In this document: one piece after another, positions 1-57,124 of the stretch
Layout of the letters: the number at the start of each line of letters is the position of its first letter
Numbering within the stretch: position 1 is the first letter of the stretch
Notes under the pieces: generated by a model
Databases searched by the model: none
The model's input: only the letters and a program-made list of their open reading frames with translations
Told to the model about the DNA's origin: nothing
Source of the DNA: Pseudomonadales bacterium
GTDB lineage: Bacteria > Pseudomonadota > Gammaproteobacteria > Pseudomonadales > UBA7239
Assembly (NCBI GenBank): GCA_041395665.1
Contig: JAWLAB010000003.1
Location: 98,961 to 162,960, forward strand
DNA: 64,000 bases
Reading direction: 5' to 3'
Program-made: the position numbers and the translations under genes

Positions 1-315
1 GGATTCCACCAGCAGAGGGCGCATGGCATCGCGCTCGTATTTGAGATCGCCCGCTAAACACTCCAGAGGGTTCTCACCGATCAGTAGCTTGCCCAAGTTT
101 TGTAGGTTGGGTAGGCCTTCCAGAAAGAGAATGCGTTCAATCAGCTTGTCAGCTTCTTTCATTACTCGGATGGACTGTTTGTAGGCGCGATCATTGAGTT
201 TTTCCAAGCCCCAGTTGCGCAGCATACGTGCGTGCAAAAAATACTGGTTGATAGCCGTCAGCTCATTTTTTAAAACTTTATTTAGCGCGTCGATAACTTT
301 TTTATCACCTTTCAT
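1..315 (-). CDS. bfr: bacterioferritin subunit, first 105 codons only (gene runs off the window start)
   Basis: Own translation from ATG at 315..313: [67 protein letters not shown]. It is collinear with E. coli Bfr. Met52 is present, while positions 51 and 54 are V and E. The start overlaps the stop of the upstream bfr (ATGA). Confidence 0.85.
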
Positions 316-791
316 GGGGCGTCTCCCATCTGCGATTGCTGATAGTTTTGCAAGCCGATCATGTCAATCAAACGGAGTTGTTGTTCAAGCCAGTAGGCGT
401 GATCCATTTCTGTGTCATCCAGTTGCAGCAGTAGCATTTCGCGCGTGACAAAATCCTGTGCTGCCTCACTGGCAACGATAGCCTTTTTTAATGAGTCCAC
501 TACATGGTATTCCAAGGCGAGGTCAGACTTGATCATCTCTTGTACAGATTTTCCTACATTGAGTGAATCGCGCTTAGAAAGATCCGGTTTTCCCTCTAAA
601 AATAAAATTCTTTGAATGATTGCCTTTGCGTGCTGTTTTTCATGGTCTGATTCATGCAGGCTTTTTTCAGCGAGTTTTTTCAAGCCAAAGTCTGCATACA
701 TTTCGCCATGAATTAAATATTGATCAACGGCGGTTAATTCGCCAGTCAATAACTTATTCAAAATGTCGATAATTTTTTTGTCGCCTTTCAT
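312..791 (-). CDS. bfr: bacterioferritin subunit (ferroxidase-centre type)
   Basis: The 159-aa ORF begins [25 protein letters not shown]. Bfr-like ferroxidase ligands E18, E51, H54, E94 (ALEY), E127 and H130 (TEMDH) are present. Residue 52 is Lys rather than Met. AAGGAG RBS upstream. Confidence 0.9.
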
Positions 792-891
792 AACTTTTCT
801 CCTTTATATACTGCGTAGGAATGGGAATGAATCGTATTATCATATCCCTTTGATATTTATAGAGTATTTATCGTTCTTATACGAATTAAAG

Positions 892-1761
892 TCAAGTTTT
901 TTGCTGGCGTAATCGTTCAATGAGTACAGATGCATCGCTGCGGTTATGCCCCATGTTTTGTAGTTCTTTGTAGTACTGATTGATTTGTTCAACGCCTTGC
1001 AATTCGCAATGAAAATCTTTCGCAGCGGCAAGAGCGATTTCTAAATCTTTTCTCACCCAATCCACTGCAAAACCAAAGTCGTATTCGCCACGCAACATGG
1101 TGTGAGCACGGTTATCCATCTGCCAAGATTGCGCTGCGCCTTGCGAAATAACTTCCAAAACGGCATCAGTATCCAAGCCTGCACTCTCGGCAAAAAATAA
1201 GCCTTCAGCCAAGCCGGCCACCACGCCGGTAAAGCAAATTTGGTTGACCATTTTGGTGAGCTGCCCAGCGCCTGCGTCACCAATGCGCTTGGCGCGTTTG
1301 CTGTAGGCGGCAATGACGGGTTCGATGCGCGTGAAGGCGGCTGCGTCGCCGCCAGCCATCACTGCCAACTGACCTTTTTTCGCGCCGGCTTGCCCGCCGG
1401 AAATGGGTGCGTCAATGAAATGCAGCCCTTGCTGTGCGGCGAGTACATACAGCTCGCGCGCAACGCGAGCCGAAGTGGTGCTGTGATCCACCCAAATCGC
1501 TTTCGGTTGCATATACGGGAAAGTAATGCTTGTCACTTCGCGTAAATCATCGTCATTGCCGACGCAGGAGAACACGATATCTGCGCCGTTAACGGCTTCA
1601 GCAATCGAAGTGACGCAAGTTTGTCCGTGTTGCTGCTGCCAAAGTGCTGCGCGTTCGGCGTTGCGGTTGTATGCCTGCACTTTGTAGCCAGCTTGTACGA
1701 GATGCCCAGCCATAGGGCCGCCCATGGTGCCGAGCCCGATCCATCCTATCGTCAGTGTCAT
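892..1761 (-). CDS. NAD(P)-dependent oxidoreductase, 3-hydroxyisobutyrate/6-phosphogluconate dehydrogenase-like family
   Basis: The Rossmann motif IGWIGLGTMGGPMAGHL lies at the N-terminus when the start is taken at internal MTLTIGW (1761). Length and downstream blocks (GDAGAGQLTKMVNQ) fit the HIBADH family. Confidence 0.75.
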   Translation of the reverse strand: MTLTIGWIGLGTMGGPMAGHLVQAGYKVQAYNRNAERAALWQQQHGQTCVTSIAEAVNGADIVFSCVGNDDDLREVTSITFPYMQPKAIWVDHSTTSARVARELYVLAAQQGLHFIDAPISGGQAGAKKGQLAVMAGGDAAAFTRIEPVIAAYSKRAKRIGDAGAGQLTKMVNQICFTGVVAGLAEGLFFAESAGLDTDAVLEVISQGAAQSWQMDNRAHTMLRGEYDFGFAVDWVRKDLEIALAAAKDFHCELQGVEQINQYYKELQNMGHNRSDASVLIERLRQQKT

Positions 1762-1827
1762 GAGTGCGCCTCGCAATGGGGTAGAATCGCGCATTCTGAA
1801 CCGTATCCACCAACAGGAAAACCACAC

Positions 1828-2352
1828 ATGGGTCACATTGCTGTCTATAACGTCACGGCCAAAATTCCTGCCGAGAAAGCGTGGGAAAAATTGAAAGATT
1901 TATCGCTGGCACACAACTATGTGCCGAATATCACCAAATGCGTGATCACCACCGCGCAGAAAGAGGGTGTGGGTGCGAGCCGTCGTGTTTCTGGTCCTCA
2001 ACAAGCCTTGGATGAAACGGTAACGGAATGGAACGAAGGACGCGGTTTTGTGATTCGTTTACACAACGGCAGCAAACCAGCTAAACCGTTTGGTGCGGCT
2101 AACTTTACTTACCGTATTGATAAAGTGGATGAGAAATCCTGCAAACTCACTTGCACCATGACTTATGAAATGGGCATGGGCTTTTTTGGTAGTTTGCTGC
2201 ACAGTTTGTTCATTGGTAATTTGATTCGCGGCAATATCCGCGATGTCGCTTTGTCGATGGCGTATTTTTACGAAACAGGTAAAAAGCCATCGAAAGAAGA
2301 TTTGGTGCGTTTGCGCGCTGAAGATAAAAAGAACGCCAAACCTTTCCCTTGA
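1828..2352 (+). CDS. SRPBCC (polyketide cyclase/START-like) family protein
   Basis: Start taken at ATG 1828 (MGHIAVYNVTAKIPAEKAWEKLKDL), divergent from the oxidoreductase. About 175 aa. The opening 'AEKVWE.L.D' type pattern is typical of SRPBCC proteins. Confidence 0.55.
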   Translation: MGHIAVYNVTAKIPAEKAWEKLKDLSLAHNYVPNITKCVITTAQKEGVGASRRVSGPQQALDETVTEWNEGRGFVIRLHNGSKPAKPFGAANFTYRIDKVDEKSCKLTCTMTYEMGMGFFGSLLHSLFIGNLIRGNIRDVALSMAYFYETGKKPSKEDLVRLRAEDKKNAKPFP

Positions 2353-2387
2353 TTGATCGACATCTATTTTTCACTTGGAGAATTGCT

Positions 2388-2708
2388 ATGAAAAAAACAC
2401 TCATCAACAAAACAACTTTATTGGCTGCAGTAACAATGGCAGGCTTTGTTGCCGCGCCTTTCGTAAATGCGGCAAGCAATCCGTTTAGCAATACCGAATT
2501 AGTGTCAGGTTATAACTTTGATCATCCGGCAGAGCATCAGTCGGGTGGCGATAAAAAAGATGAAAAGTCGTGCACTGACAAGAAAGATGAAAAACAGTGC
2601 GATAACAAAGATGGCAAGAAAGACGATGTCATCCCTGGTCACAGTGAAAAAGCAGCCGCAGAGGGCAAATGTGGTGAAGGAAAATGCGGCGAAGGTATGA
2701 TGGACTAA
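2388..2708 (+). CDS. secreted Cys-containing RiPP precursor, HvfA-like (EGKCG motifs)
   Basis: GGAG RBS 8 nt upstream of ATG 2388. Sec signal peptide MKKTLINKTTLLAAVTMAGFVAAPFVNA/AS, then NPF..ELVSGY. The core is K/D/E-rich with 4 Cys and ends in EGKCGEGKCGEGMMD. Sits immediately upstream of the DUF692 and DUF2063 genes. Confidence 0.65.
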   Translation: MKKTLINKTTLLAAVTMAGFVAAPFVNAASNPFSNTELVSGYNFDHPAEHQSGGDKKDEKSCTDKKDEKQCDNKDGKKDDVIPGHSEKAAAEGKCGEGKCGEGMMD

Positions 2709-2721
2709 TCGGTTCATCCTC

Positions 2722-3552
2722 ATGATTCATGCAATGCCCGTAGCGGGTGCGGGTTTAGGTATCCGGCGGGCATTGTTGAATGATTTGCAGCAGATGAATG
2801 CTGCGGTTGATTTTCTTGAAGTTACGCCCGATAACTGGATTCACACGGCAGGTAAGCCGCTCAAACAATTACACGAATTATCCGCGCGTTATCCCATGTT
2901 GGCGCACGGTTTATCGCTTTCTCTCGGCGGAACCGATCCATTGGATGTGGATTTCATCGCAGAACTCAAAATATTCTTAGATACGCATCGCGTTCATGTC
3001 TACAGCGAGCATTTGAGTTTTTGCAGTGCAGAAGGGCATTTGTACGATTTGATGCCAATTCCTTTCACAGAAGAAGCCATTAAAAACACTACGCAGCGTA
3101 TTCGTGAGGTGCAAGAGCGGTTAGAGCGCCGCATCGCCATCGAAAATGTTTCTTACTATGCCGCGCCGTATCAAGTGTTGTCAGAAATAGATTTTATCAG
3201 TGCAATTTTGGTTGAAGCAGACTGTGATTTGTTGCTGGATGTTAACAATGTTTATGTCAACAGCATTAACCATCACTACAACGCACAAGATTTTATTCGC
3301 GCAATACCTACAGAGCGCGTGGCTTACTTGCATGTGGCGGGGCATTACACGCAAGCCGAGGATTTGCGCATTGATACACATGCTGCGCCTGTTTGTGACC
3401 CAGTGTGGGAGTTGCTGGCATATACCTATCGGCAACATGGCATAAAACCAACAGTATTGGAGCGTGATTTCAACTTCCCGCCTTTTGTGGATTTGTTGAA
3501 GGAAGTGCAGCAAATACAGGCTATTCAGCAATCGGTGCAAGGCAATGGCTGA
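2722..3552 (+). CDS. multinuclear non-heme iron oxidase (MNIO, DUF692; MbnB/HvfB/BufB-like RiPP maturase)
   Basis: 276 aa. Opens with GAGLGIRR and contains EVTPDNW, SLSLGG, YSEHLSF, IENVSYY, LLDVNNVYVN, LHVAGH and VLERD, a TIM-barrel block pattern I recognise from DUF692 proteins. Confidence 0.8.
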   Translation: MIHAMPVAGAGLGIRRALLNDLQQMNAAVDFLEVTPDNWIHTAGKPLKQLHELSARYPMLAHGLSLSLGGTDPLDVDFIAELKIFLDTHRVHVYSEHLSFCSAEGHLYDLMPIPFTEEAIKNTTQRIREVQERLERRIAIENVSYYAAPYQVLSEIDFISAILVEADCDLLLDVNNVYVNSINHHYNAQDFIRAIPTERVAYLHVAGHYTQAEDLRIDTHAAPVCDPVWELLAYTYRQHGIKPTVLERDFNFPPFVDLLKEVQQIQAIQQSVQGNG

Positions 3553-4270
3553 ATTGCGTGAGCAGCAGTTGCAGTTTGCTAATCATCTACGCAACCCTGC
3601 AAAATTTCCTGCGCCGCAAGGTGTAGAGGAAAGGCGTTTGCAGATTTATCGTGATTTATTTTTTAATAATATCGCCAATTTATTAGCGAACACTTTTCCC
3701 GTTATGCGCAGTATTTTGAATGACGCTCAGTGGCAAGCCTTGGTACGAGATTTTTATACTGAGCATCATTGTGAAACGCCGTTGTTTCCGTGGATAGCGG
3801 GCGAGTTTGCCGAGTATCTGCTCAACGAGAGCGATAATGTAGGCGTTTTTCCCTTTCTTGCTGAATTGGCGTATTACGAGTGGAGTGAAATTGCGCTGCG
3901 CCACACAGCGGATGATGCAGAAATGCCCATGCGAGTGGGTGATAAACCTGTGCTGTCGCCGCGTTGTTGGGTACTGTCGTATCACTATCCTGTGCATCGT
4001 ATCGGTAAAGATTTTTTGCCGCAGCAGGTAGAGGCTATACCTGTGTGTTTGTTGATGTATTGCAATCAAGATGATGAAGTGAAGTTTGTGGAATCGAATC
4101 CAGCTACTTTTCGTCTATTGCAGTTATTAATGGATGATACATTTATCAATATGGATGTGGTAAACACACAATTGTTGCAAGAAATGCAGCCAGAGAAACC
4201 AGATGTGCTGTTAAAGCATCTGCAGCAAACTATTGCACAGTTACAGGGTTTGGGTGTTTTGCTTGTTTAA
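3545..4270 (+). CDS. DUF2063 family RiPP-maturation partner (HvfC/BufC/MbnC-like)
   Basis: 241 aa. The start overlaps the DUF692 stop by 8 nt (ATGGCTGA). The N-terminal pattern QLQFANHLRNP...RLQIYRDLFFNNIANLLANTFPVMRSIL is typical of DUF2063 proteins that pair with DUF692. Confidence 0.7.
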   Translation: MAELREQQLQFANHLRNPAKFPAPQGVEERRLQIYRDLFFNNIANLLANTFPVMRSILNDAQWQALVRDFYTEHHCETPLFPWIAGEFAEYLLNESDNVGVFPFLAELAYYEWSEIALRHTADDAEMPMRVGDKPVLSPRCWVLSYHYPVHRIGKDFLPQQVEAIPVCLLMYCNQDDEVKFVESNPATFRLLQLLMDDTFINMDVVNTQLLQEMQPEKPDVLLKHLQQTIAQLQGLGVLLV

Positions 4271-4300
4271 TTGCAGTGGTGCAACTATTGCTGTTTTTCT

Positions 4301-4828
4301 TTATAGCCCAGCAGGGCACTGCTCATCTAGCCAAACTCCATTACTTTTCACATCGATTTTTTGCGCGATACTGCGAATAGTAAGAATTAGCTCTGTAGTG
4401 GCTTGCCAATGCCTATCATCCAGTAGACGCACAACGGTTAGCCCTGAACCGCTGGGGGCGGAGCACTGAATCTGAAAGATCAAGACATTGTTCACGCGTT
4501 TTCCACGGCTCACATTGCAGCCGCTACCTTGATCGTTGACGAAATTGCCGCTCGCAATTTGCTGTGTATTCACGCATAACTGCGCGGTGCCATCACTGCT
4601 TACGCGCGCGTGGTTTTGTTGCAGCATTCTGTTGATATGCGTTTGTAGTTTTTGTGGCCCCATCCCTACGAGTTTGCTGAGGTTCGGCACTTGGCGATCA
4701 AACAAAAACACTTGGCTGTCTACCTGCCATAAACCGGTACGCGGAGCTACTGGTTCCGCCGCCCAGCCAGCAGCGGTGATTGAACTTAGCAAGAGGTAGA
4801 GAATGATAGGCAACGCTGTATTTTTCAT
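4301..4828 (-). CDS. secreted protein, DUF3617-like
   Basis: Signal peptide MKNTALPIILYLLLSSITAAGWA, then the TGLWQV motif and spaced Cys residues. This resembles the PGLWE-type DUF3617 family. The family assignment is from memory only. Confidence 0.4.
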   Translation of the reverse strand: MKNTALPIILYLLLSSITAAGWAAEPVAPRTGLWQVDSQVFLFDRQVPNLSKLVGMGPQKLQTHINRMLQQNHARVSSDGTAQLCVNTQQIASGNFVNDQGSGCNVSRGKRVNNVLIFQIQCSAPSGSGLTVVRLLDDRHWQATTELILTIRSIAQKIDVKSNGVWLDEQCPAGL

Positions 4829-4986
4829 GGCAGAAGATGGTATGCAGAATGAACCCGTTGATCATACCTTTTCTGCCAGCTGATTGAAGTGGTCTTTCGG
4901 TCGGCTGCCATTGATGGGGGGATGCGAGGTGGGCGTGTATAATCACCTGAACTTTTGTCTGTATTTACTCGTGGTTACCTACAGTG

Positions 4987-7626
4987 ATGAAAAGCGCACA
5001 AATTCGCCAAGCCTTCCTTGATTTTTTTGCCAGCAAAGGGCACGCCGTGGTGGCGAGCAGCTCGTTGGTTCCGCATGAAGATCCCACTTTGCTATTTACC
5101 AATGCGGGGATGAATCAATTCAAAGATTGCTTCCTCGGCTTGGATAAACGCACCTACACCCGTGCGGTGACTTCACAGAAATGTGTGCGTGCTGGCGGCA
5201 AGCACAATGATTTGGAAAATGTTGGCTATACCGCACGCCATCACACTTTTTTTGAGATGTTGGGCAACTTCAGTTTTGGTGATTACTTCAAGCAAGATGC
5301 CATTCAGTTTGCGTGGGAATTTTTAACATCGCCTAAATGGTTGTTTATTCCACAAGAAAAATTGTGGGTCACCATTTATGCCACTGATGATGAGGCATTT
5401 GATATTTGGCATCAAAATATTGGTATTCCAGCCGAGCGTATTATTCGTATCGGCGATAACAAAGGTGCGCCTTACGCTTCCGACAATTTTTGGGCGATGG
5501 GTGATACCGGCCCTTGTGGTCCGTGTACGGAAATTTTTTACGATCACGGCGAACATATTTGGGGTGGCTTGCCTGGCTCGCCAGAAGAAGACGGTGATCG
5601 CTACATTGAAATTTGGAACAATGTTTTTATGCAATTTAATCGCACAGCAGATGGTGTTTTGCATCCGTTACCTGCGCCAAGTGTGGATACGGGCATGGGC
5701 TTGGAGCGCATTTCAGCGGTAATGCAGCATGTGCACAGCAACTACGAAATTGATTTGTTTCAAATGCTATTAGCGTCTGCGGCGAGTGCTGTTGGTTGCA
5801 ATAATGAAGGTCAAGCCTCGCTCAAAGTGTTAGCAGATCATATTCGTTCTTGTTCTTTTTTGATTGCTGATGGTGTGACACCTTCTAATGAGGGGCGCGG
5901 TTATGTGTTGCGTCGCATCATTCGCCGCGCTGTGCGACATGGCAATAAATTGGGTGCGCAAGATGTGTTCTTCTACAAAATGGTGGCAGCTTTAGTGCAA
6001 GAGATGGGCGAGGCCTATCCTGATCTGAAAAAACAGCAAGCACATATTGAAAAAACACTACGCACAGAAGAAGAACAATTCGCTCGCACACTCGATAATG
6101 GCTTGAAAATTCTTGAGCAGGATTTGGCGGGGCTGCAAGGCACGGTTGTGCCTGGCGATGTCGTGTTCAAGCTGTACGATACTTACGGTTTCCCCATGGA
6201 TCTCACAGCTGATATTGCACGCGAACGCGATTTAACGATTGATGAAGCGGGTTTTGAGCAAGCGATGGAAAAGCAGCGTAAACGCTCACAGGAAGCTGGT
6301 AAGTTTGAGCTGGATTACAACACGCTGATTAAAGTGAATGTGAATACAAAATTCACGGGTTATGAATCCGTTAAAGGCTCTGGGAAGGTGGTTGCACTTT
6401 ACCGTGCTGGTGAGCAAATTGACGCACTGCGTGAGGGCGATGAAGGCATTGTGGTTTTAGATAGCACGCCTTTTTATGCCGAAGCAGGCGGGCAAGTGGG
6501 TGATGCTGGTTTTCTCTACACGCAGTTTGCGCGTTTGGATGTGAATAATGTCACTAAAAGTGGCGGAGCAATTTTGCACCATGTCACGATGACACAAGGC
6601 TATGCAAAATTGGGTGATACGCTGTACGCCAATGTTGCTGTTGATGCGCGTTTGGCAACAGCATCCAATCACTCGGCCACGCATTTATTGCACGCGGCGT
6701 TACGCAAAGTGTTGGGTGCGCATGTGCAACAAAAAGGCTCGTTGGTGGATGATCAGCGCTTGCGCTTTGATTTCTCACATCCAGAAGCATTGAATGATGA
6801 GCAGTTGCAAACGATAGAAGCTTTGGTGAATGATGAAATTCGTCGTAACACGGCTGTTGAAACAACTGTTGGTGATATGGAAACCGCTAAAGCCAAAGGT
6901 GCGATGATGTTGTTCGGTGAGAAATACGGCGATACGGTGCGTATTTTGACGATGGGCGCAGGGTTTTCTGAAGGGCATCCTTTCTCAGTTGAATTGTGTG
7001 GCGGTACGCACGCCAAACGCACGGGTGATATTGGTTTGTTTCGTATTGTTTCAGAAGCGGGCGTTGCATCGGGTGTGCGGCGCATTGAAGCTGTAACGGG
7101 TAGAGGTGCGTTGGCTCGTTTTGATGCAGTGGAAGCAGAAATTGATGATGCGTGTGCGGTGTTAAAAACCAATCGCGCTGGTTTTACAGACAAAGTGCAA
7201 TCGTTGGTTGATATCAATCGTCAGCTAGAAAAACAGTTGGCTCAATTGAAAATGAAATTGGCGAGTGGTGGCAGCAGCGATCTCAGTACACAAGCGAAAG
7301 ACATCAATGGCGTAAAAGTATTGTCAGCACAATTAGATGGTGCTGACATCAATGCCTTGCGTGCTACTTTGGATCAGATGAAAGATAAATTGAAGTCGGC
7401 GGTAATTTTGTTGGCAGCCACAGAAGATGGCAAAGCAACGCTGATTGCTGGTGTTACAGCGGATTTAACAACGCGTTTTAAAGCAGGTGACATCATTCGC
7501 GATTTAGCGCCCTTAGTGGGTGGTAAAGGTGGCGGTCGTGCAGACATGGCGCAAGGCGGCGGCACGGATGTGGCAGGTGTGCCGAATGCTTTATCTGCAT
7601 TAGAAAATTGGGTAGGCCAGCGTTAA
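4987..7626 (+). CDS. alaS: alanine--tRNA ligase
   Basis: [19 protein letters not shown]..., 879 aa, full-length AlaRS architecture. ATG 4987 is preferred over the in-frame GTG at 4984. Confidence 0.97.
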
Positions 7627-19326: not shown

Positions 19327-20610
19327 ATGCAAAAACCATCAATAAAAACACTGGCACTGTCGTTTGTTCAGGATTACCTGCCCAATAAGCCAGTGTTGGC
19401 ATTGATGGCTGCTTGTGAGTTTTCCGATCAGGATAATTTGCAGCGCGCATGTGTCACGGATCAGTGTGATGCGTTGCAGGCTTTGCTTGCACAAGAAAAA
19501 ACTTTAGAAGACATTGCGTCGGCATTGCAGATTGCTGTTTTAGATTTTTCGCGCCCGTTACATTTGCAGCCCGTTTTTATTCCTAAACCTTGGGGTCAGG
19601 AAATTTGGTATACGGGAATTGAGGAACGCGGCGTTGCGTCGGTGGTCAGTGCAAGCGGCTCAACACCGCTGTCTTGGTTGCTGGCTTTGTCGCGCCAGAG
19701 TGTGTTGGGGAATCAAGAACAGATTAATTTATTGAAAATTCTTGATCCATTACCCGACGAGGTCTTTGGCGATTTGTATTTTGAATTGCATGAAAAAAAA
19801 CGCGAAGTGTATATCGTCACGCATGTGGATAAAAAAGCGTGGCCGGATGGCGTAGGTGCAATTCGTTACGGTTTTTCTGCAGAAAAACGCCAACTGTATT
19901 CCAGTGACGATGCGTTTTTGGCAGCGTATAAGCAGTCTGTGAGTGAGTACGCAAAAATTCGTCGAGAAATAGATGCTCAGTTAGATGTCATGCGTGAACG
20001 AGATGGCATTGCCTTGAATGCGCCTGTGAGCGCAGGGCAACTACAGTCATGGCTTGCGCAGATTTCTGTAGAGATGCAAATACAAGAAGCTACTCTGCGT
20101 AAAACAATGGAGAGTTTTACCGCCTTGCGCAACTTGCGAGAGGGCGATGTATTGGCTGTCCCCTTGCGCACGCCGCATGCCTTGCAACACGGTGTGCGCA
20201 CGGTCGAGTTTCAAACGCCCGTTTACGAAAGAAAAATTCTCTCTTTTGCGCAGAAAGTGTTGACCCAAGCACATTGGGATACTGATGCAGCATTACAAAT
20301 TGCTCAGCTAGAAACACCGCCCGATCAGTCTTTTCCTTTGTTATTGGATAAAGACGGTGTGCTGTTAGAGCAAATTGTTCAGTTTGAAGATTTTATCGTG
20401 CAGCGTTTAGTGCTTGCTGCGCATGCTGAGTATCGCTGTGAAACAGCAGGCAGTTATGTCTTAGCGATGACCGTAGTGGGTAGTGTGGATTGCGCTGGAT
20501 CTGTATTGAGCGCTGAGAAAGCGTGTTTGATTCCAGCTTGTTTGGACAGTGTGTTATTAAAAAATGCATCTTCTAACGCGGCGACAGTTCTGTTGGCACG
20601 ACCGCTATAA
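19327..20610 (+). CDS. hypothetical protein, type I phosphomannose-isomerase-like cupin
   Basis: 427 aa. The KPWGQEIWYTGIE block and a later PHALQHGVRTVEFQTP block resemble PMI/cupin motifs, but the canonical QVHP block is replaced (ELHEKKREVYIV). Confidence 0.35.
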   Translation: MQKPSIKTLALSFVQDYLPNKPVLALMAACEFSDQDNLQRACVTDQCDALQALLAQEKTLEDIASALQIAVLDFSRPLHLQPVFIPKPWGQEIWYTGIEERGVASVVSASGSTPLSWLLALSRQSVLGNQEQINLLKILDPLPDEVFGDLYFELHEKKREVYIVTHVDKKAWPDGVGAIRYGFSAEKRQLYSSDDAFLAAYKQSVSEYAKIRREIDAQLDVMRERDGIALNAPVSAGQLQSWLAQISVEMQIQEATLRKTMESFTALRNLREGDVLAVPLRTPHALQHGVRTVEFQTPVYERKILSFAQKVLTQAHWDTDAALQIAQLETPPDQSFPLLLDKDGVLLEQIVQFEDFIVQRLVLAAHAEYRCETAGSYVLAMTVVGSVDCAGSVLSAEKACLIPACLDSVLLKNASSNAATVLLARPL

Positions 20611-43225: not shown

Positions 43226-44173
43226 CTACATTGTAGCAACATTGATAGTTGTATATCCGTGTTTGGCCATAAGTAATCGTGTTGCATCGACTTTGTTATG
43301 CCACCAAAGATCAAAAATAATATCTGGTGGGTTTATGTTGCAAGTTTTCTTTAGTTCTACTTTTTTCTTGACGAAGAAAATAGTGGCCAGCCCCTCAATT
43401 CCTTGTGGGACTCTTGGTTGTGAGCGAGTGAGAGAGCACTCCGTCAAACTTCGCTCAATCAGCCCATTGCGATCAGTGAAGTGTAGCTGGTTGGGAAATT
43501 GTGTAGCGAGGTGGTAGGCCACCATACCCATTTGACCACTAAGAATTTGGATTTTTTCATTTTGCTGTATTTTTATTTCTTTGATAATTGGAATTAGGCT
43601 TTCTATGGTGCTGATATTGGCTCGGTTGTCGGGTGAGTTTTTTTCAGAGAATGTATATTGATTGAGTGTGTGTTGATCCAATTTATTAGAAGAATAGTCA
43701 AGGTGAGAGCTGCTTTCTCGTTGGTTGTGAAGCAACTGAGTTATACAAATCCCTACCAAAAGCAGCCGAAAAACAATTGGATTGGGTGCTAATAATGAAA
43801 TGTATCTAGTTACCAGTAGAGCATGAATAGGGGTTAATGCTGCAATGAGACGCTGTTCTGGCATCCAGTCTCCGCCAGCCAAGATAATAAAGATGAGATA
43901 GCCGCTGCTAGTAATTGCAGCTGTAGCAATAAGCGAAGTTTCTTTATGTTTATAGCTTCGCCAAAGTAGATGAGCAGTGGCAAGGATGCTTGCTACTCCC
44001 ATCATTAGATTCATTCCATGAAAACCTTGCGTAAGATAGAGAAATCCGTTTTTTATAGTAGCAATAGATATTCCGTTAGATTTTGCTGCTACAGGTTGCG
44101 GAAAGATATCGCCAAAATATACCCAGCGAAAACAAAAAATAATTAATGCAGTCATTACGCTGATAGCTGACAT
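43226..44173 (-). CDS. polytopic membrane protein, C-terminal part of a split GT-C-like glycosyltransferase gene
   Basis: FGDIFPQPVAAKS, GGDWMPEQR and a C-terminal soluble region (FTDRNGLIERSL, PPDIIF) recall the arabinofuranosyl/GT-C type family. Overlaps the upstream ORF by 98 nt in another frame. Confidence 0.4.
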   Translation of the reverse strand: MSAISVMTALIIFCFRWVYFGDIFPQPVAAKSNGISIATIKNGFLYLTQGFHGMNLMMGVASILATAHLLWRSYKHKETSLIATAAITSSGYLIFIILAGGDWMPEQRLIAALTPIHALLVTRYISLLAPNPIVFRLLLVGICITQLLHNQRESSSHLDYSSNKLDQHTLNQYTFSEKNSPDNRANISTIESLIPIIKEIKIQQNEKIQILSGQMGMVAYHLATQFPNQLHFTDRNGLIERSLTECSLTRSQPRVPQGIEGLATIFFVKKKVELKKTCNINPPDIIFDLWWHNKVDATRLLMAKHGYTTINVATM

Positions 44174-45920: not shown

Positions 45921-46397
45921 ATGTGGCGCTGGGTTATTTTGGCATTTGCAGTGCTTTTTATTATTTCGCGGCTAGCGCGCTTACAGCCATCACCGCGTGA
46001 TAAAAAACTCCAGCTGATGCGACAGGCAGCGACGCAGGCCGGCTTGGCTGTGCGATTTTGGACGAAGCGCAACAGTGGATATCAGTCGCGTTTATTGCCT
46101 GAATCAGGCTTTATGTATTACTTTCCTTGGCCGGTTAGTGATCAGCCAAAAAAACACTGGGCAATTTGGTTGGATGTCGAAGGTAATACGCATGGTATTG
46201 CCGGAGAAGTACCTGATTTGGCTCAAAAGTGCCTATATTCCTTTCAGCAAAACTTCCCAAACAGCTGGGCTCTTTTAGAATGCAATGCTGTCGGCATGGG
46301 CTTGCTATGGCAGGAATGTGGTGAGTTGGACGATGTAAATAAAATTGCGCAAGCTTTGGATGTATTGCGCAAAAATTTTGATGTAGTAACGAGTTGA
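45921..46397 (+). CDS. hypothetical membrane-anchored protein
   Basis: 158 aa with one N-terminal TM helix (WVILAFAVLFIISRL). No motif recognised. Tightly packed between its neighbours. Confidence 0.4.
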   Translation: MWRWVILAFAVLFIISRLARLQPSPRDKKLQLMRQAATQAGLAVRFWTKRNSGYQSRLLPESGFMYYFPWPVSDQPKKHWAIWLDVEGNTHGIAGEVPDLAQKCLYSFQQNFPNSWALLECNAVGMGLLWQECGELDDVNKIAQALDVLRKNFDVVTS

Positions 46398-48181
46398 GAG
46401 CGATAGTGGTAATGAGTAGTCATGTTTCTTCGGCAGCAAAGATTTTTACTGGTTTTTTCGTCTGCATTTTGGCCGCGCTAGTTTGGTATACCGCAATCTA
46501 CCCAAGAAGTATAGAAAGTGAGTGGGGTGAACCGTTAAAAAGCGCTTCCTTTGCCCCGTTTTATGATGGGCAATCTCCTTTAAAGAAAGTGTTTCCGTCA
46601 CAAGAACAAATTGAAGCAGATTTGGTGCGATTAAAAGGCGTATTCAGTGGCGTTCGTACTTATACCGCGCGAGATGGTATGGAAGTTGTTCCTGCTTTGG
46701 CAGAAAAACACGGCTTCACCTTGACGCACAGCGCATGGCTGGGGAGAGAAAAAGCGGATAACGACAAAGAAGTGCAGGTGTTGATCGAGACGGCAAATCA
46801 TTACCCGCAAGCAGTGAAGCGAGTGATCGTGGGTAATGAAGTTTTATTGCGCCGTGATCTCAAACCAGATGAGTTGATCGCCTACATTGATCAAGTGCGT
46901 TCTGCTATTAAGCAGCCTGTTTCTTACGCCGATGTGTGGGCGTTTTGGCTGAAAAACCCGCAAGTCGCAGATCATGTGGACTACATCACCATTCATATTT
47001 TGCCGTATTGGGAAGATGAACCGGTTTCGCTGCATGATGCACAACAACATATGTTGGTCATCATCGAAAAAATTAAACAGCGTTTTCCCGGCAAGCCTAT
47101 TTTGGTGGGTGAAACAGGTTGGCCAACAGAAGGGCGTAGCCGTGGCCCCGCCCATGCTGACCTATTAACGGCAGCAGAGTTTGTGCGTTCGTTACCACAT
47201 TTGGCTAAACAATATGATTTTGATTACAACGTAGTTGAGGCGTTTGACCAATCTTGGAAAGCGCAATTAGAAGGCACAGTGGGTGCGCGTTGGGGATTAT
47301 TTGACGCATCGCGCGCAATGAAATATCCATTAACGGGTGATGTGGTTCCATTGGATGATGCAATGCTGCGTGCAGGTGCATCTTTGCTCGTTGGATTATT
47401 GCTTGCGCTGTTGCTGGTGCCTTATGCGCGCACCGTGCGACACACTTTGTTATTGAGTGGGTGGAGCCAATTATTTGCAGCGGCTTTGGTGTTGGCAATC
47501 TATAAAAGTATTCGTTTGTCAGTTGCACCATCTTCACTGACATGGTTTTCTCAGCACTTGCTCTTTTTTGTTGCGGATAAACACTGGATTTCCGATGCCG
47601 ATGTGGCGTTTTGGTATCGCTTGTTACTGCAAATATGGGCAGAACCTTTTGCGCAGTTGTGGGGTTATGTTTTGGTAGGTTTTTCATTGCTGTTTGCTAT
47701 CGGTGGCGTGCAGTGGTTGCGTTCGTTATTAGCAAAACAACTGTCATCAGATTCTGTTGCGTGGGTGCGTCGCGGTTTTGCACTGTACGGTTTGGGTGCC
47801 ATGGGTTTTGCGGTAATGTTTTCGACATCCGGTCGTTACATGGATATCCCCGTTGCACTGTATTGTCTGCCAGTGGTGCTGGCCGTTGGGCTATGGTTAT
47901 CGCGTCGTTGCATTGCAACGATTCCGCAAAGTGCGAGCGCAGTTTTTACATGGAATATTCATGCAAGATTGTTGCTGCCTGCAGCAGCGCTGGCTTGTCT
48001 GTGGGGTGAGGTGAAGGCGATGTTGAAGGGTGAAGATTTCATAACCATGCATCCTACGCTGCAAGAACAACTGCCTTTGATAGCCAATTCTCTGTTGTCC
48101 AATTACCAGCTGCTCTTATGGTGCTTGCTGTGTGTTTTGTTGGCGTTTGCGTTTCAACGAGAAAAAAAGATTGCCCATTAA
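46394..48181 (+). CDS. glycoside hydrolase family 17 domain fused to a C-terminal polytopic membrane domain (NdvC-like)
   Basis: N-terminal TM anchor. GH17/clan-A blocks VIVGNEVLLR (acid/base Glu) and ILVGETGWPTEG (nucleophile Glu), then 6 or more TM helices. Start is TTG 46394 or ATG 46412. Confidence 0.6.
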   Translation: MRAIVVMSSHVSSAAKIFTGFFVCILAALVWYTAIYPRSIESEWGEPLKSASFAPFYDGQSPLKKVFPSQEQIEADLVRLKGVFSGVRTYTARDGMEVVPALAEKHGFTLTHSAWLGREKADNDKEVQVLIETANHYPQAVKRVIVGNEVLLRRDLKPDELIAYIDQVRSAIKQPVSYADVWAFWLKNPQVADHVDYITIHILPYWEDEPVSLHDAQQHMLVIIEKIKQRFPGKPILVGETGWPTEGRSRGPAHADLLTAAEFVRSLPHLAKQYDFDYNVVEAFDQSWKAQLEGTVGARWGLFDASRAMKYPLTGDVVPLDDAMLRAGASLLVGLLLALLLVPYARTVRHTLLLSGWSQLFAAALVLAIYKSIRLSVAPSSLTWFSQHLLFFVADKHWISDADVAFWYRLLLQIWAEPFAQLWGYVLVGFSLLFAIGGVQWLRSLLAKQLSSDSVAWVRRGFALYGLGAMGFAVMFSTSGRYMDIPVALYCLPVVLAVGLWLSRRCIATIPQSASAVFTWNIHARLLLPAAALACLWGEVKAMLKGEDFITMHPTLQEQLPLIANSLLSNYQLLLWCLLCVLLAFAFQREKKIAH

Positions 48182-55411: not shown

Positions 55412-57124
55412 TTACTTGGGTGTTGCAGTGTTGCTTAATCGAGTCTTATACCATTGATGTGTGGCATCAATTTTTGGCATGAGTGCGTCAAGATTGATGG
55501 TTTTCAAGTCTTCAAAACTGCACTGAAAAATAAGAATGTCGCGGTTTCTATAAAGAACATTATTCATACAGGCTGCACTAATGGGTGCAACGGCTGGATC
55601 AAAACTCAGAGTTTGCAAGGAAAGCACTAAAGTAAATGCCAGTGGAGACTTCCATTGGTAGTGTTCCCCAACCCTAATGACATGATCTTCTATTAAATCT
55701 AAGCAATCAGCAAAGTTTTGCGATGTTGGCAAGCGGTATTCAATATGGCGGGGGTAGCCGTTGTAGCCACAACCTGCTAATTGACTGGCATGGGTATTGG
55801 TTAGGTGTTGGATAGCTTGATCTAAGCCCGCCGTTTTTTGTACGGCGTTGTTATCCCACAAAAATACAGATTTTCTTGTGGCTGGCTCCATTATTACGCC
55901 AATGGATAATAAGACAACGAGACTTGTAAGCGCTGTATTTTTGAAAGCACATTGCGTGGAAAGGAGTTGCGCTGCCAATACAAACAATAACCACAGGCTC
56001 CACTGCATAGGAAAATATAAATGCCCTGGTGACATCGCCATGGCGAATATCACAAACCACAATATATAAATCAATATGCAGGTATTGATTGAAAAGATCA
56101 GCCATGTAAAAGGTGATACATCACGGCATTGAATTATTTTCTTGAAAGTGATGATGGAAATAGCTATCAATCCCAGTACATAAAGTATGCCTACAATATG
56201 ATAGATGTCAGCAGGTTCGTTGCCTAAAAAAGGATTCTTTATACCGAACTCTGCCAAACCTTCTTCGACAAAATAGAGATTCTTGTTTGCATTGCGAAAC
56301 AGATAGGGAAGTTTTTCTTCGGCTTGCAGCCATTGCCCAATACCAGAGCCGTGATGGTGGATAAAGTCTTGTTTATACTGTTGATAGTTTGCTTGGTAGA
56401 TTGTTGAGTAATCTTGTAGTGCATTTTTTTGCAATAAGAAGGATGTGCTGCTAATAAAAATTGACGGAAGGACTAATAAAACGATTAGGATCAATAGTTT
56501 CTTAGCTTGTATAAAAACTGACAATAAAAAAACAAGGTTCAACCAGATAAACGCGGGTAATAGAAGTGGCTTGATGAGTAGACTAATGCTGGTCGCTATT
56601 CCTAGAAACAATGCACAATTTTTAATGCTGTAAGATTTGTTGAATGACACACAGGCAGATAATAAAAACAATAAGCTGCCGGTGTAATAGCCAATTAACG
56701 ATGAAAAATCTTGTGCAAACGCAGCGACAATACCGCCGCACAAGCAGAGCATGATCAAGGCAGGGTTTCTGCCATAGCGGCGAATCTGCCATAAACATAA
56801 AGCAGAAAGTACGAGGTTGACTGCCCAGCCCGTAACGCCGCCTATCCACCATTGATTGCCGAAAATTTTTATCAAGAGGGCTGCTGGTAGTAGTAGGGCT
56901 GCGGGACCGGTGAAATCAGGATTGAAGGGGATTTTTTCGCTGTAACTGGTGGCCCATCCGTAGTCGTTAAGCCAATTTTTAGGGACAGATAAAAAAAGCG
57001 CGTCGTCACTGGAAGGTGAGCGCTCAAATGCCAAAATCCCTTGGCCGATAACAAAGGCAATAAACAGAACGAGAGCGATGATATTGATCAGGGCTTCCGC
57101 CCGATTCGCCTTGAAATACAGCAC
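55412..57124 (-). CDS. large polytopic membrane protein, GT-C/PMT-like (hypothetical)
   Basis: 570 aa, GTG start, about 12 or more hydrophobic segments. An early-loop acidic motif SSDDALFL and a C-terminal soluble domain of about 150 aa. Composition is visibly A/T-rich. Confidence 0.4.

Follow-up and report, generated by a model that had tools for sequence, protein, structure and literature searches.

Three tightly packed plus-strand genes at 2388..4270 of a 64-kb stretch of Pseudomonadales bacterium contig JAWLAB010000003.1 (the window, by which we mean that whole stretch) very likely form an hvfABC-type operon on the chromosome of an uncultured Pseudomonadales-like gammaproteobacterium, encoding a peptide made by the ribosome and modified after translation (a RiPP) of the EGKCG, or 'Lys-Cys' captophorin, type. 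Open reading frame (ORF) calling and translation gave the order A-B-C, namely a precursor peptide gene (hvfA), a gene for a multinuclear non-heme iron oxidase (MNIO) maturase (hvfB), and a gene for its partner protein (hvfC) (Table 1). The locus is an uncharacterized member of the well-catalogued HvfABC family, lying at that end of the known range where motifs are few and DoxX is missing, and its three proteins are all covered by named models in the curated NCBIfam set. An earlier annotation made from the letters of this DNA (the sequence-only reading) had described three co-directional genes with almost no spacing, and the coordinates agree: 13 bp separate the hvfA stop from the hvfB start, and the hvfC ATG overlaps the hvfB stop by 8 bp within ATGGCTGA (3545-3552), an overlap that had been noted there as well. 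The precursor length of 107 aa given in that annotation needs correction, the ORF encoding 106 aa.

Family assignment of the maturase and its partner

HvfB matched PF05114 (MbnB_TglH_ChrH, the DUF692/MNIO family) over its full length (341 bits, E=5e-102) and exceeded the cut-off of the HvfB-family equivalog NF003818 (414 bits versus 360, E=3e-124; residues 9-269 of 276 covered), while BufB (NF050167, 272 versus 310 bits), MbnB (TIGR04159, 41.6 versus 325 bits), ApyH, and ChrH stayed below their cut-offs. In HvfC, both PF09836 (DUF2063; 95.7 bits, E=2e-27) and PF22106 (NGO1945_C, an RRE-type C-domain; 78.3 bits, E=6e-22) were found, and the HvfC-family equivalog NF050145 was passed by a wide margin (264 bits versus 142, E=1e-78). 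The naming of the second and third proteins as DUF692 and DUF2063 members in the sequence-only reading was thereby borne out by profile matches far beyond chance. The precursor also scored above the cut-off of NF050137, a KCGExKCG domain model named 'HvfA family ... RiPP metallophore' (23.4 versus 19.5 bits), in line with the HvfA-family membership proposed for it. Because the HvfB, HvfC, and HvfA-domain cut-offs were passed and those of BufB and MbnB were missed, we assign the locus to the HvfABC family rather than to the bufferins or methanobactins. The description of the cluster as HvfABC/bufferin-like with a methanobactin-like enzyme pair thus stands in its first part, the enzyme being of the HvfB type, and falls in the other two, as it is neither of the BufB nor of the MbnB type.

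Structural and residue-level comparisons agreed with this assignment. The closest solved structures were 3BWW, an MNIO of Histophilus somni, for HvfB (E=1e-72) and 3DEE, NGO1945/NgoC of Neisseria gonorrhoeae, for HvfC (E=5.5e-9); both are used as structural representatives of the family (PMC13097082). Residues of HvfB were assigned to the iron site through alignment and the literature. Across 81 HvfB homologues, H62, H97, E141, D173, N176, H204, H208, D218, H220, and E247 were at least 97% conserved, as were R15, R16, D249, and F250. The last four are equal in identity and numbering to residues of FonB, where they serve as substrate-gating residues and the catalytic base (PMC13097082 section 14), so that ligand, catalytic-base (D249), and gating (R15, R16, F250) residues are all retained in the window enzyme. 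Its DTH and LDVNN motifs align to 3BWW, and they match N175, D242, and H244 of HvfB from nontypeable Haemophilus influenzae (NTHi), which are essential for activity (bioRxiv 10.64898/2026.07.17.739211).

The precursor peptide and its four cysteines

The precursor reads MKKTLINKTTLLAAVTMAGFVAAPFVNA/ASNPFSNTELVSGYNF...EKSCTDKKDEKQCDNK...AAAEGKCGEGKCGEGMMD, with the slash at the predicted cleavage site, and ends in AEGKCGEGKCGEGMMD; this C-terminus and the NPF..ELVSGY segment are as the sequence-only reading had stated. By inspection, its signal peptide comprises a lysine-rich n-region (MKKTLINK), an 18-residue hydrophobic core, and V-N-A at positions -3 to -1, which fits the proposed Sec-type cleavage near VNA/AS. 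A signal peptide of this type is a defining trait of the precursor family (PMC11252979, PMC12452194). In an alignment of 37 precursor homologues, M1, A28, N31, P32, F33, L38, and G41 were invariant, and conservation was concentrated in three regions: the region around the cleavage site, an N-terminal block of the mature peptide (NPFSNTEL.SG), and the terminal EGKCGEGKCG (E92-G101), which was at least 90% conserved. The N-terminal block is probably the segment recognized by the RRE domain of HvfC, for which we regard it as a candidate. No Pfam family, DUF2282 included, matched the precursor.

Four cysteines are present, at residues 62, 71, 95, and 100, and each pair lies within a DNA repeat. 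The EGKCGEGKCG core is encoded by a 15-bp repeat in 1.9 copies, and the KDEK[S/Q]C segment containing C62 and C71 by a repeat with a period of 27, in 2.0 copies with 76% matches. Sister precursors (P0006 onward) carry an internal EGKCGEGKCG bracketed by two more cysteines, together with an upstream GGEGKCG. In the clade of the window precursor (P0001-P0005; 65-100% identical), the internal EGKCG motifs have been lost and a K/D/E-rich spacer stands in their place, with both bracket cysteines kept. This reduced precursor is the sole, mild peculiarity of the locus.

The replacement of internal motifs by a charged spacer could be read as decay, that is, as a cluster whose precursor, stripped of most modifiable motifs, has ceased to serve productively as a substrate or metallophore, and the window's lack of a detectable DoxX gene and of any copper gene among 45 Pfam-scanned ORFs would fit such a scenario. 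We give it very little credence. All three ORFs are intact and every catalytic residue of HvfB is conserved; the terminal AEGKCGEGKCG is retained by all five clusters that the clade forms at 90% identity, and at least 90% of the 37 homologues keep it as well; and an identical HvfB occurs on 23 independent metagenome contigs, with gene order kept in the six loci that were fetched. Furthermore, HvfA truncated to a single repeat is still modified (PMC11252979), and two or fewer KCG motifs are found in 12 of 59 relatives. A motif-poor but probably working HvfABC cluster is the reading that we retain.

The fate of C62 and C71 can be approached through their sequence contexts. In KSCT and KQCD, neither cysteine has lysine at -1 or glycine at +1; aspartate follows C71, and in close relatives the residue after C62 is D, E, or K. 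Motifs with a charged residue after the cysteine are not processed by FonBC (PMC13097082 section 13), and the non-motif cysteines of HvfA, C38 and C43, are unmodified and form a disulfide (PMC11252979). On account of these contexts, the limits of FonBC, and the analogy with HvfA, C62 and C71 are predicted to remain unmodified, the most likely product being a peptide with two 5-thiooxazoles (C95 and C100) and one C62-C71 disulfide. Conversion of all four cysteines, giving two copper sites instead of one site and a disulfide, would be in keeping with the conservation of C62 and C71 across the sub-family, and FonBC does introduce a single modification into certain non-canonical motifs, such as NVCGG and LVHCY (PMC13097082 section 13). 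Given the charged neighbors and the missing lysine and glycine, we consider this outcome unlikely, though less so than the other alternatives weighed here.

Proposed maturation and copper binding

The following pathway is modeled on characterized relatives. Translation of hvfA, for which the ORF, the Shine-Dalgarno-like sequence, and the 37 conserved homologues speak, would yield the 106-aa pre-peptide. Before export, HvfC, with its DUF2063 and RRE-like C-terminal domains, would bind the precursor, probably through the invariant NPFSNTEL.SG block, and present the C-terminal EGKCGEGKCG to HvfB, by analogy with the binding of HvfA by HvfC in Haemophilus. Using a mixed-valent Fe(II)/Fe(III) cofactor and O2, HvfB would then oxidize C95 and C100 in a four-electron reaction, turning each into a 5-thiooxazole (-4 Da each), as its homologues do. 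Sec export and cleavage after VNA28 would release an acidic peptide of 78 aa (8,362.9 Da when unmodified, with a pI of about 5), in which C62 and C71, in contexts that FonBC does not process, would stay cysteines and most likely form a disulfide. The two thiooxazoles may provide N,S ligands for Cu(I), with each peptide having approximately one site or with peptides sharing sites, and the modified peptide could buffer excess periplasmic copper in the manner of oxazolin, fontiphorin, gonophorin, and the bufferins.

The sequence-only reading had given oxazolone/thioamide pairs as the established chemistry of EGKCG motifs, a statement that has since been overtaken. That assignment was made for HvfA in 2024 (PMC11252979) and lives on in the NCBIfam model names, which still read 'oxazolone/thioamide-modified'. 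In 2026, however, two independent studies, one from the original authors (bioRxiv 10.64898/2026.06.05.730506) and one from another group (PMC13097082), reassigned oxazolin to 5-thiooxazole. In oxazolin, fontiphorin, and gonophorin, none of the EGKCG repeats is left unmodified (PMC13097082), and all characterized MNIO-PME1 clusters yield 5-thiooxazoles absorbing near 305 nm. Installation of methanobactin-like oxazolone/thioamide pairs by the window HvfB, which scores just 41.6 bits where the MbnB model demands 325, is therefore highly improbable, and 5-thiooxazole is the product that we expect.

Relationship to known systems

The closest parallel is the HvfABC/oxazolin system of NTHi (NTHI1441/1443/1444; PMC11252979), which has an equal gene order of precursor, MNIO, and DUF2063-RRE partner, and whose HvfB- and HvfC-family models are passed by the window proteins; 3BWW is reported to be 72% identical to NTHi HvfB. 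The two precursors share a Sec signal peptide, a C-terminal AEGKCGEGKCG, and two extra N-terminal cysteines outside the motifs. They differ in that HvfA has three AEGKCGEGKCG units (six target cysteines) whereas the window precursor has one (two target cysteines), and in that the non-motif cysteines of the latter lie in a K/D/E-rich 27-bp duplication. The NTHi system also includes DoxX/HvfX, of which none was found in the window, and it belongs to a pathogen, in contrast to the environmental Pseudomonadales-like host here.

The 'Lys-Cys' captophorins fontiphorin (FonABC, Fontimonas thermophila) and gonophorin (NgoABC, N. gonorrhoeae) likewise combine an EGKCG precursor, an MNIO, and a PME1 partner (PMC13097082). 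FonB has R15, R16, D249, and F250 at positions identical to those of the window enzyme, and window HvfC matches the NgoC structure 3DEE. Their 5-thiooxazoles, absorbing near 305 nm, are the product to be expected here too; fontiphorin contains seven of them, compared with two motifs in the window precursor, whose modified, copper-binding product is predicted.

The bufferins, Buf1 (DUF2282) and Buf2 (BufABC with DoxX and sigma/anti-sigma genes; PMC11626156, PMC12452194), have a related MNIO, as the 272 bits against the BufB model indicate, and the PME1 type of partner and the Sec-exported precursor are common to both. Their conversion of cysteine to thiooxazole and their periplasmic copper buffering may extend to the window peptide, which would also resemble Buf1 in having four cysteines with two predicted targets. 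Membership was nevertheless rejected, given the missed BufB cut-off (310 bits) and a precursor without DUF2282. A Buf2-type precursor, of the Cys-Lys kind with 6 or 12 Cys, was rejected as well, the cysteine contexts being KSCT, KQCD, and GKCG (twice), with no Cys-Lys (CK) motif. Bufferin clusters carry DoxX or sigma/anti-sigma genes, and the window cluster is without them.

In the methanobactin system (MbnABC), an MNIO-superfamily enzyme also acts on the cysteines of a ribosomal peptide to create a copper ligand. Its chemistry is oxazolone/thioamide, as opposed to 5-thiooxazole in the family of the window locus, and the role of methanobactin is copper acquisition, with induction under copper starvation (PMC13097082), whereas the HvfABC-type family is regarded as one that sequesters or detoxifies the metal. 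Methanobactin membership was rejected on the MbnB score, on a partner of the DUF2063/HvfC rather than MbnC type, and on a Sec-type signal in place of a leader.

Several observations weigh against our assignment or its functional extension. The KCGExKCG_twice model NF050137 was matched over positions 10-29 only, half of the model, and the strict HvfA equivalog NF050188 was not reached (19.6 versus 95 bits). Because of the latter, we treat the precursor as a divergent family member rather than as an orthologue of Haemophilus HvfA. With two canonical motifs, it stands at the low end of the family, in which the median is seven KCG. No sigma-70 consensus promoter was found directly 5' of hvfA in a consensus scan, and no copper-responsive regulator, copper-responsive promoter, or copper gene was found when 45 window ORFs were compared with Pfam and the consensus scan was applied; the copper link is consequently without local support. 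Modification, export, and copper binding are predicted by homology, and the fate that we propose for C62 and C71 is a guess.

Genomic neighborhood

Table 1. Features of the hvfABC locus and its neighbors (window coordinates)
Feature	Position	Strand	Details and basis
Shine-Dalgarno-like GGAGA	2377..2381	+	6 nt 5' of hvfA ATG; read from sequence
hvfA-family precursor gene	2388..2708	+	106 aa; ATG 2388, TAA 2706-2708; ORF and translation
Predicted Sec-type signal peptide	2388..2471	+	Residues 1-28, predicted cleavage VNA/AS; by inspection
Conserved N-terminal block of mature peptide, NPFSNTELVSGYN	2478..2516	+	37-homologue alignment
27-bp tandem duplication encoding KDEK[S/Q]C repeat	2556..2608	+	With C62 and C71; TRF
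Core motif EGKCGEGKCG	2661..2690	+	Residues 92-101; predicted 5-thiooxazole sites C95 and C100
hvfB, MNIO (DUF692) maturase	2722..3552	+	276 aa; Pfam, NCBIfam, PDB match
hvfC, DUF2063 and RRE-type partner (PME1)	3545..4270	+	241 aa; Pfam, NCBIfam, PDB match
Terminator-like hairpin and T-run	4273..4301	+	3 nt past hvfC stop; consensus scan
Ferritin-like (bacterioferritin) gene	312..791	-	159 aa; Pfam
3-Hydroxyisobutyrate-dehydrogenase-like gene	892..1761	-	Between ferritins and SRPBCC gene
SRPBCC/Polyketide_cyc2 gene	1828..2352	+	174 aa; ends 35 bp before hvfA
DUF3617 gene	4301..4828	-	175 aa; 30 bits, weak; converges on hvfC

Regulatory signals around the operon were sparse. When the region upstream of hvfA was compared among the window and its two closest relatives (L007 and L008), the sole conserved block was GGAGA, and no conserved operator beyond this Shine-Dalgarno sequence was seen in the 35-bp gap between the SRPBCC gene and hvfA. 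Scanning positions 1..6000 with Rfam (E<=1) returned one chance-level match, with no riboswitch and no leader. Counts of promoter sites in the region were at or below the shuffled expectation. The hairpin after hvfC, which sits in the 30-bp gap between hvfC and the convergent DUF3617 gene, is no more than suggestive, because the site count in the region did not rise above the shuffled expectation either.

A hidden Markov model (HMM) for DoxX was built from 22 DoxX-like neighbor proteins of related loci, two of which were confirmed by Pfam as DoxX. When every window ORF of 40 aa or more was searched with it, no DoxX was found at E<=10, in agreement with the sequence-only reading, which had called the cluster a minimal version lacking DoxX and a sigma/anti-sigma pair. 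The description is true of this locus, but the arrangement is unremarkable. Among 80 related loci, the HMM placed DoxX within 6 kb in 30, and it is absent from that range in the other 50; because of this, the DoxX-less three-gene layout can be regarded as common. EGKCG clusters are described as holding 'various combinations' of the RiPP, MNIO, DUF2063, and DoxX genes (PMC12452194), and DoxX is a frequent but neither a universal nor a defining feature of HvfABC clusters. Sigma/anti-sigma genes are a trait of Buf1 bufferins rather than of EGKCG clusters (PMC12452194).

Pfam scans covered the three cluster genes and four neighbors and, from the rest of the window, 40 of the larger ORFs. Nothing related to copper was seen among the scanned ORFs, as the sequence-only reading had said of copper regulators and transporters. 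They were ordinary chromosomal genes, most of them housekeeping (among others alaS, ftsK, lolA, serS, miaE, fadBA, mnmA, topA, dnaX, speE, htpG, lpxK, and ccmF). Two histidine kinases with one response regulator were also present, and five ORFs had no match. The unmatched ORFs (E<=1e-5) stand in housekeeping surroundings at 19327..20610 (+; 427 aa), 43226..44173 (-; 315 aa), 45921..48181 (+; 158 and 595 aa), and 55412..57124 (-; 570 aa).

The immediate neighbors were largely as previously listed: the bacterioferritin pair, the SRPBCC gene, and the DUF3617 gene were all recovered, and the 3-hydroxyisobutyrate-dehydrogenase-like gene had been omitted. The second of the tandem ferritin-like genes, also of 159 aa and on the minus strand, is cut by the window start (1..791 region; see 4847..6070 of L001). 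The bacterioferritin neighbors are local synteny and not parts of the system. On longer contigs, the two ferritin-like genes are followed by a Fer2_BFD (bacterioferritin-associated ferredoxin) gene, which places an iron-storage trio about 1.6 kb from a cluster built on an iron-dependent MNIO; no evidence of a functional link was found. The DUF3617 protein has a signal-peptide-like N-terminus and four cysteines, and its gene adjoins hvfC only in L007 (56% identity), being absent in L008.

The SRPBCC gene deserves separate consideration, as it might form a four-gene SRPBCC-hvfABC operon in which the Polyketide_cyc2 protein is a new accessory factor in the place of DoxX. It is co-directional with hvfA, the 35-bp gap between them contains no sigma-70 consensus promoter, and the adjacency recurs in L007 (5008..5532). 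Between the window and L007, identity stands at 93% for the SRPBCC protein, above the values for HvfA (approximately 48-49%), HvfB (83%), and HvfC (67%), and the 66-bp divergent intergenic region 5' of its gene, with a TAGAAT -10-like box, lies in a stretch that is likewise 93% identical. Nevertheless, the adjacency was seen in only 1 of the 80 related loci. In L008, which ranks second in closeness, the SRPBCC gene and hvfABC have two unrelated genes between them, and hvfABC there follows an opposite-strand gene; no SRPBCC homologue was found in the remaining 78 loci; and SRPBCC proteins are unreported among conserved MNIO-cluster genes (PMC12452194). Because adjacency is limited to L007, we interpret the SRPBCC and DUF3617 genes as local synteny and reject both as system components, the former separated and the latter absent in L008 and both absent from the 78 others. 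Co-transcription of SRPBCC with hvfABC is possible in this lineage only, and an accessory role for its product appears quite unlikely.

A bolder proposal would make the window clade a naturally minimized captophorin sub-type, with one EGKCGEGKCG Cu(I) site, a bracket-cysteine disulfide or second metal site, and SRPBCC replacing DoxX. If true, the duplicated KDEKxC module would act as a redox-sensitive disulfide or as a second, non-heterocyclic metal site, and metal would be bound in an ordered 1:1 manner, nearer to the logic of Buf1 than to that of stochastic multi-site EGKCG peptides. We rate this as a long shot, slightly behind the four-gene operon, and keep to the three-gene HvfABC interpretation.

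Occurrence, relatives, and significance

The six fetched contigs encoding the identical HvfB share a common neighborhood and gene order. The precursor was called as a gene on all five contigs holding the whole locus and is cut by the contig end in L005; the identical protein is deposited at NCBI as 'hypothetical protein R3E63_05130 [Pseudomonadales bacterium]'. The concern that gene callers could easily miss so small a precursor was thus not realized on these contigs or in the NCBI metagenome-assembled genome (MAG), although the names given are 'hypothetical' or 'low-complexity'.

Our sample of relatives comprised 80 genome loci, mostly from Gammaproteobacteria, with HvfB 55-83% identical to that of the window. 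Adjacency of hvfB and hvfC was universal (80/80), and a KCG-motif precursor lay directly 5' of hvfB in 59, with 1 to 24 KCG per precursor. The family is large: it counts approximately 2,000 known Buf_EGKCG/oxazolin precursors (PMC12452194), and MNIO-PME1 loci number more than 24,000, in about half of Pseudomonadota reference genomes (PMC13097082).

Against this background, the significance of the locus beyond annotation is little. Its genes can be confidently named as those for an HvfA-family 5-thiooxazole RiPP metallophore precursor, an HvfB-family MNIO maturase, and an HvfC-family partner, in place of the 'hypothetical' or 'low-complexity' labels that the three proteins now bear in the public record of the MAG lineage. 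It also adds one data point to the view that environmental Gammaproteobacteria commonly carry three-gene EGKCG clusters with very few motifs and no DoxX. With its two motifs and 78 aa, the mature peptide could be a convenient small natural substrate for work on a single thiooxazole pair and its copper stoichiometry, a use that is a matter of convenience rather than discovery.

Three further observations were made among the relatives. In Methylophaga-type loci (L018, L022, L027, and L035), the ORF just 5' of hvfB encodes not an EGKCG peptide but a protein of approximately 250 aa that begins like a signal peptide and has 'LLCGCPI' as a conserved segment; its cluster covers six loci, and it could be a different class of MNIO substrate or a mere neighbor. 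Xanthomonadales-type precursors (L016, L021, L023, L040, L047, L053, L056, and L069) contain EF-hand-like segments of the calcium-binding type between their EGKCG blocks (e.g., DTDKDGKVS...DTNKDGFID) and resemble the Buf_EGKCG/EF-hand fusions noted previously (PMC12452194). Finally, a contig from an 'uncultured Halobacteria archaeon' MAG (L037; CAVYIJ010000003.1) carries a gammaproteobacterial-type hvfABC-DoxX cluster with an HvfB 59% identical to that of the window, and behind its archaeal label there is most likely an error of binning or taxonomy, not a cluster of archaeal origin.

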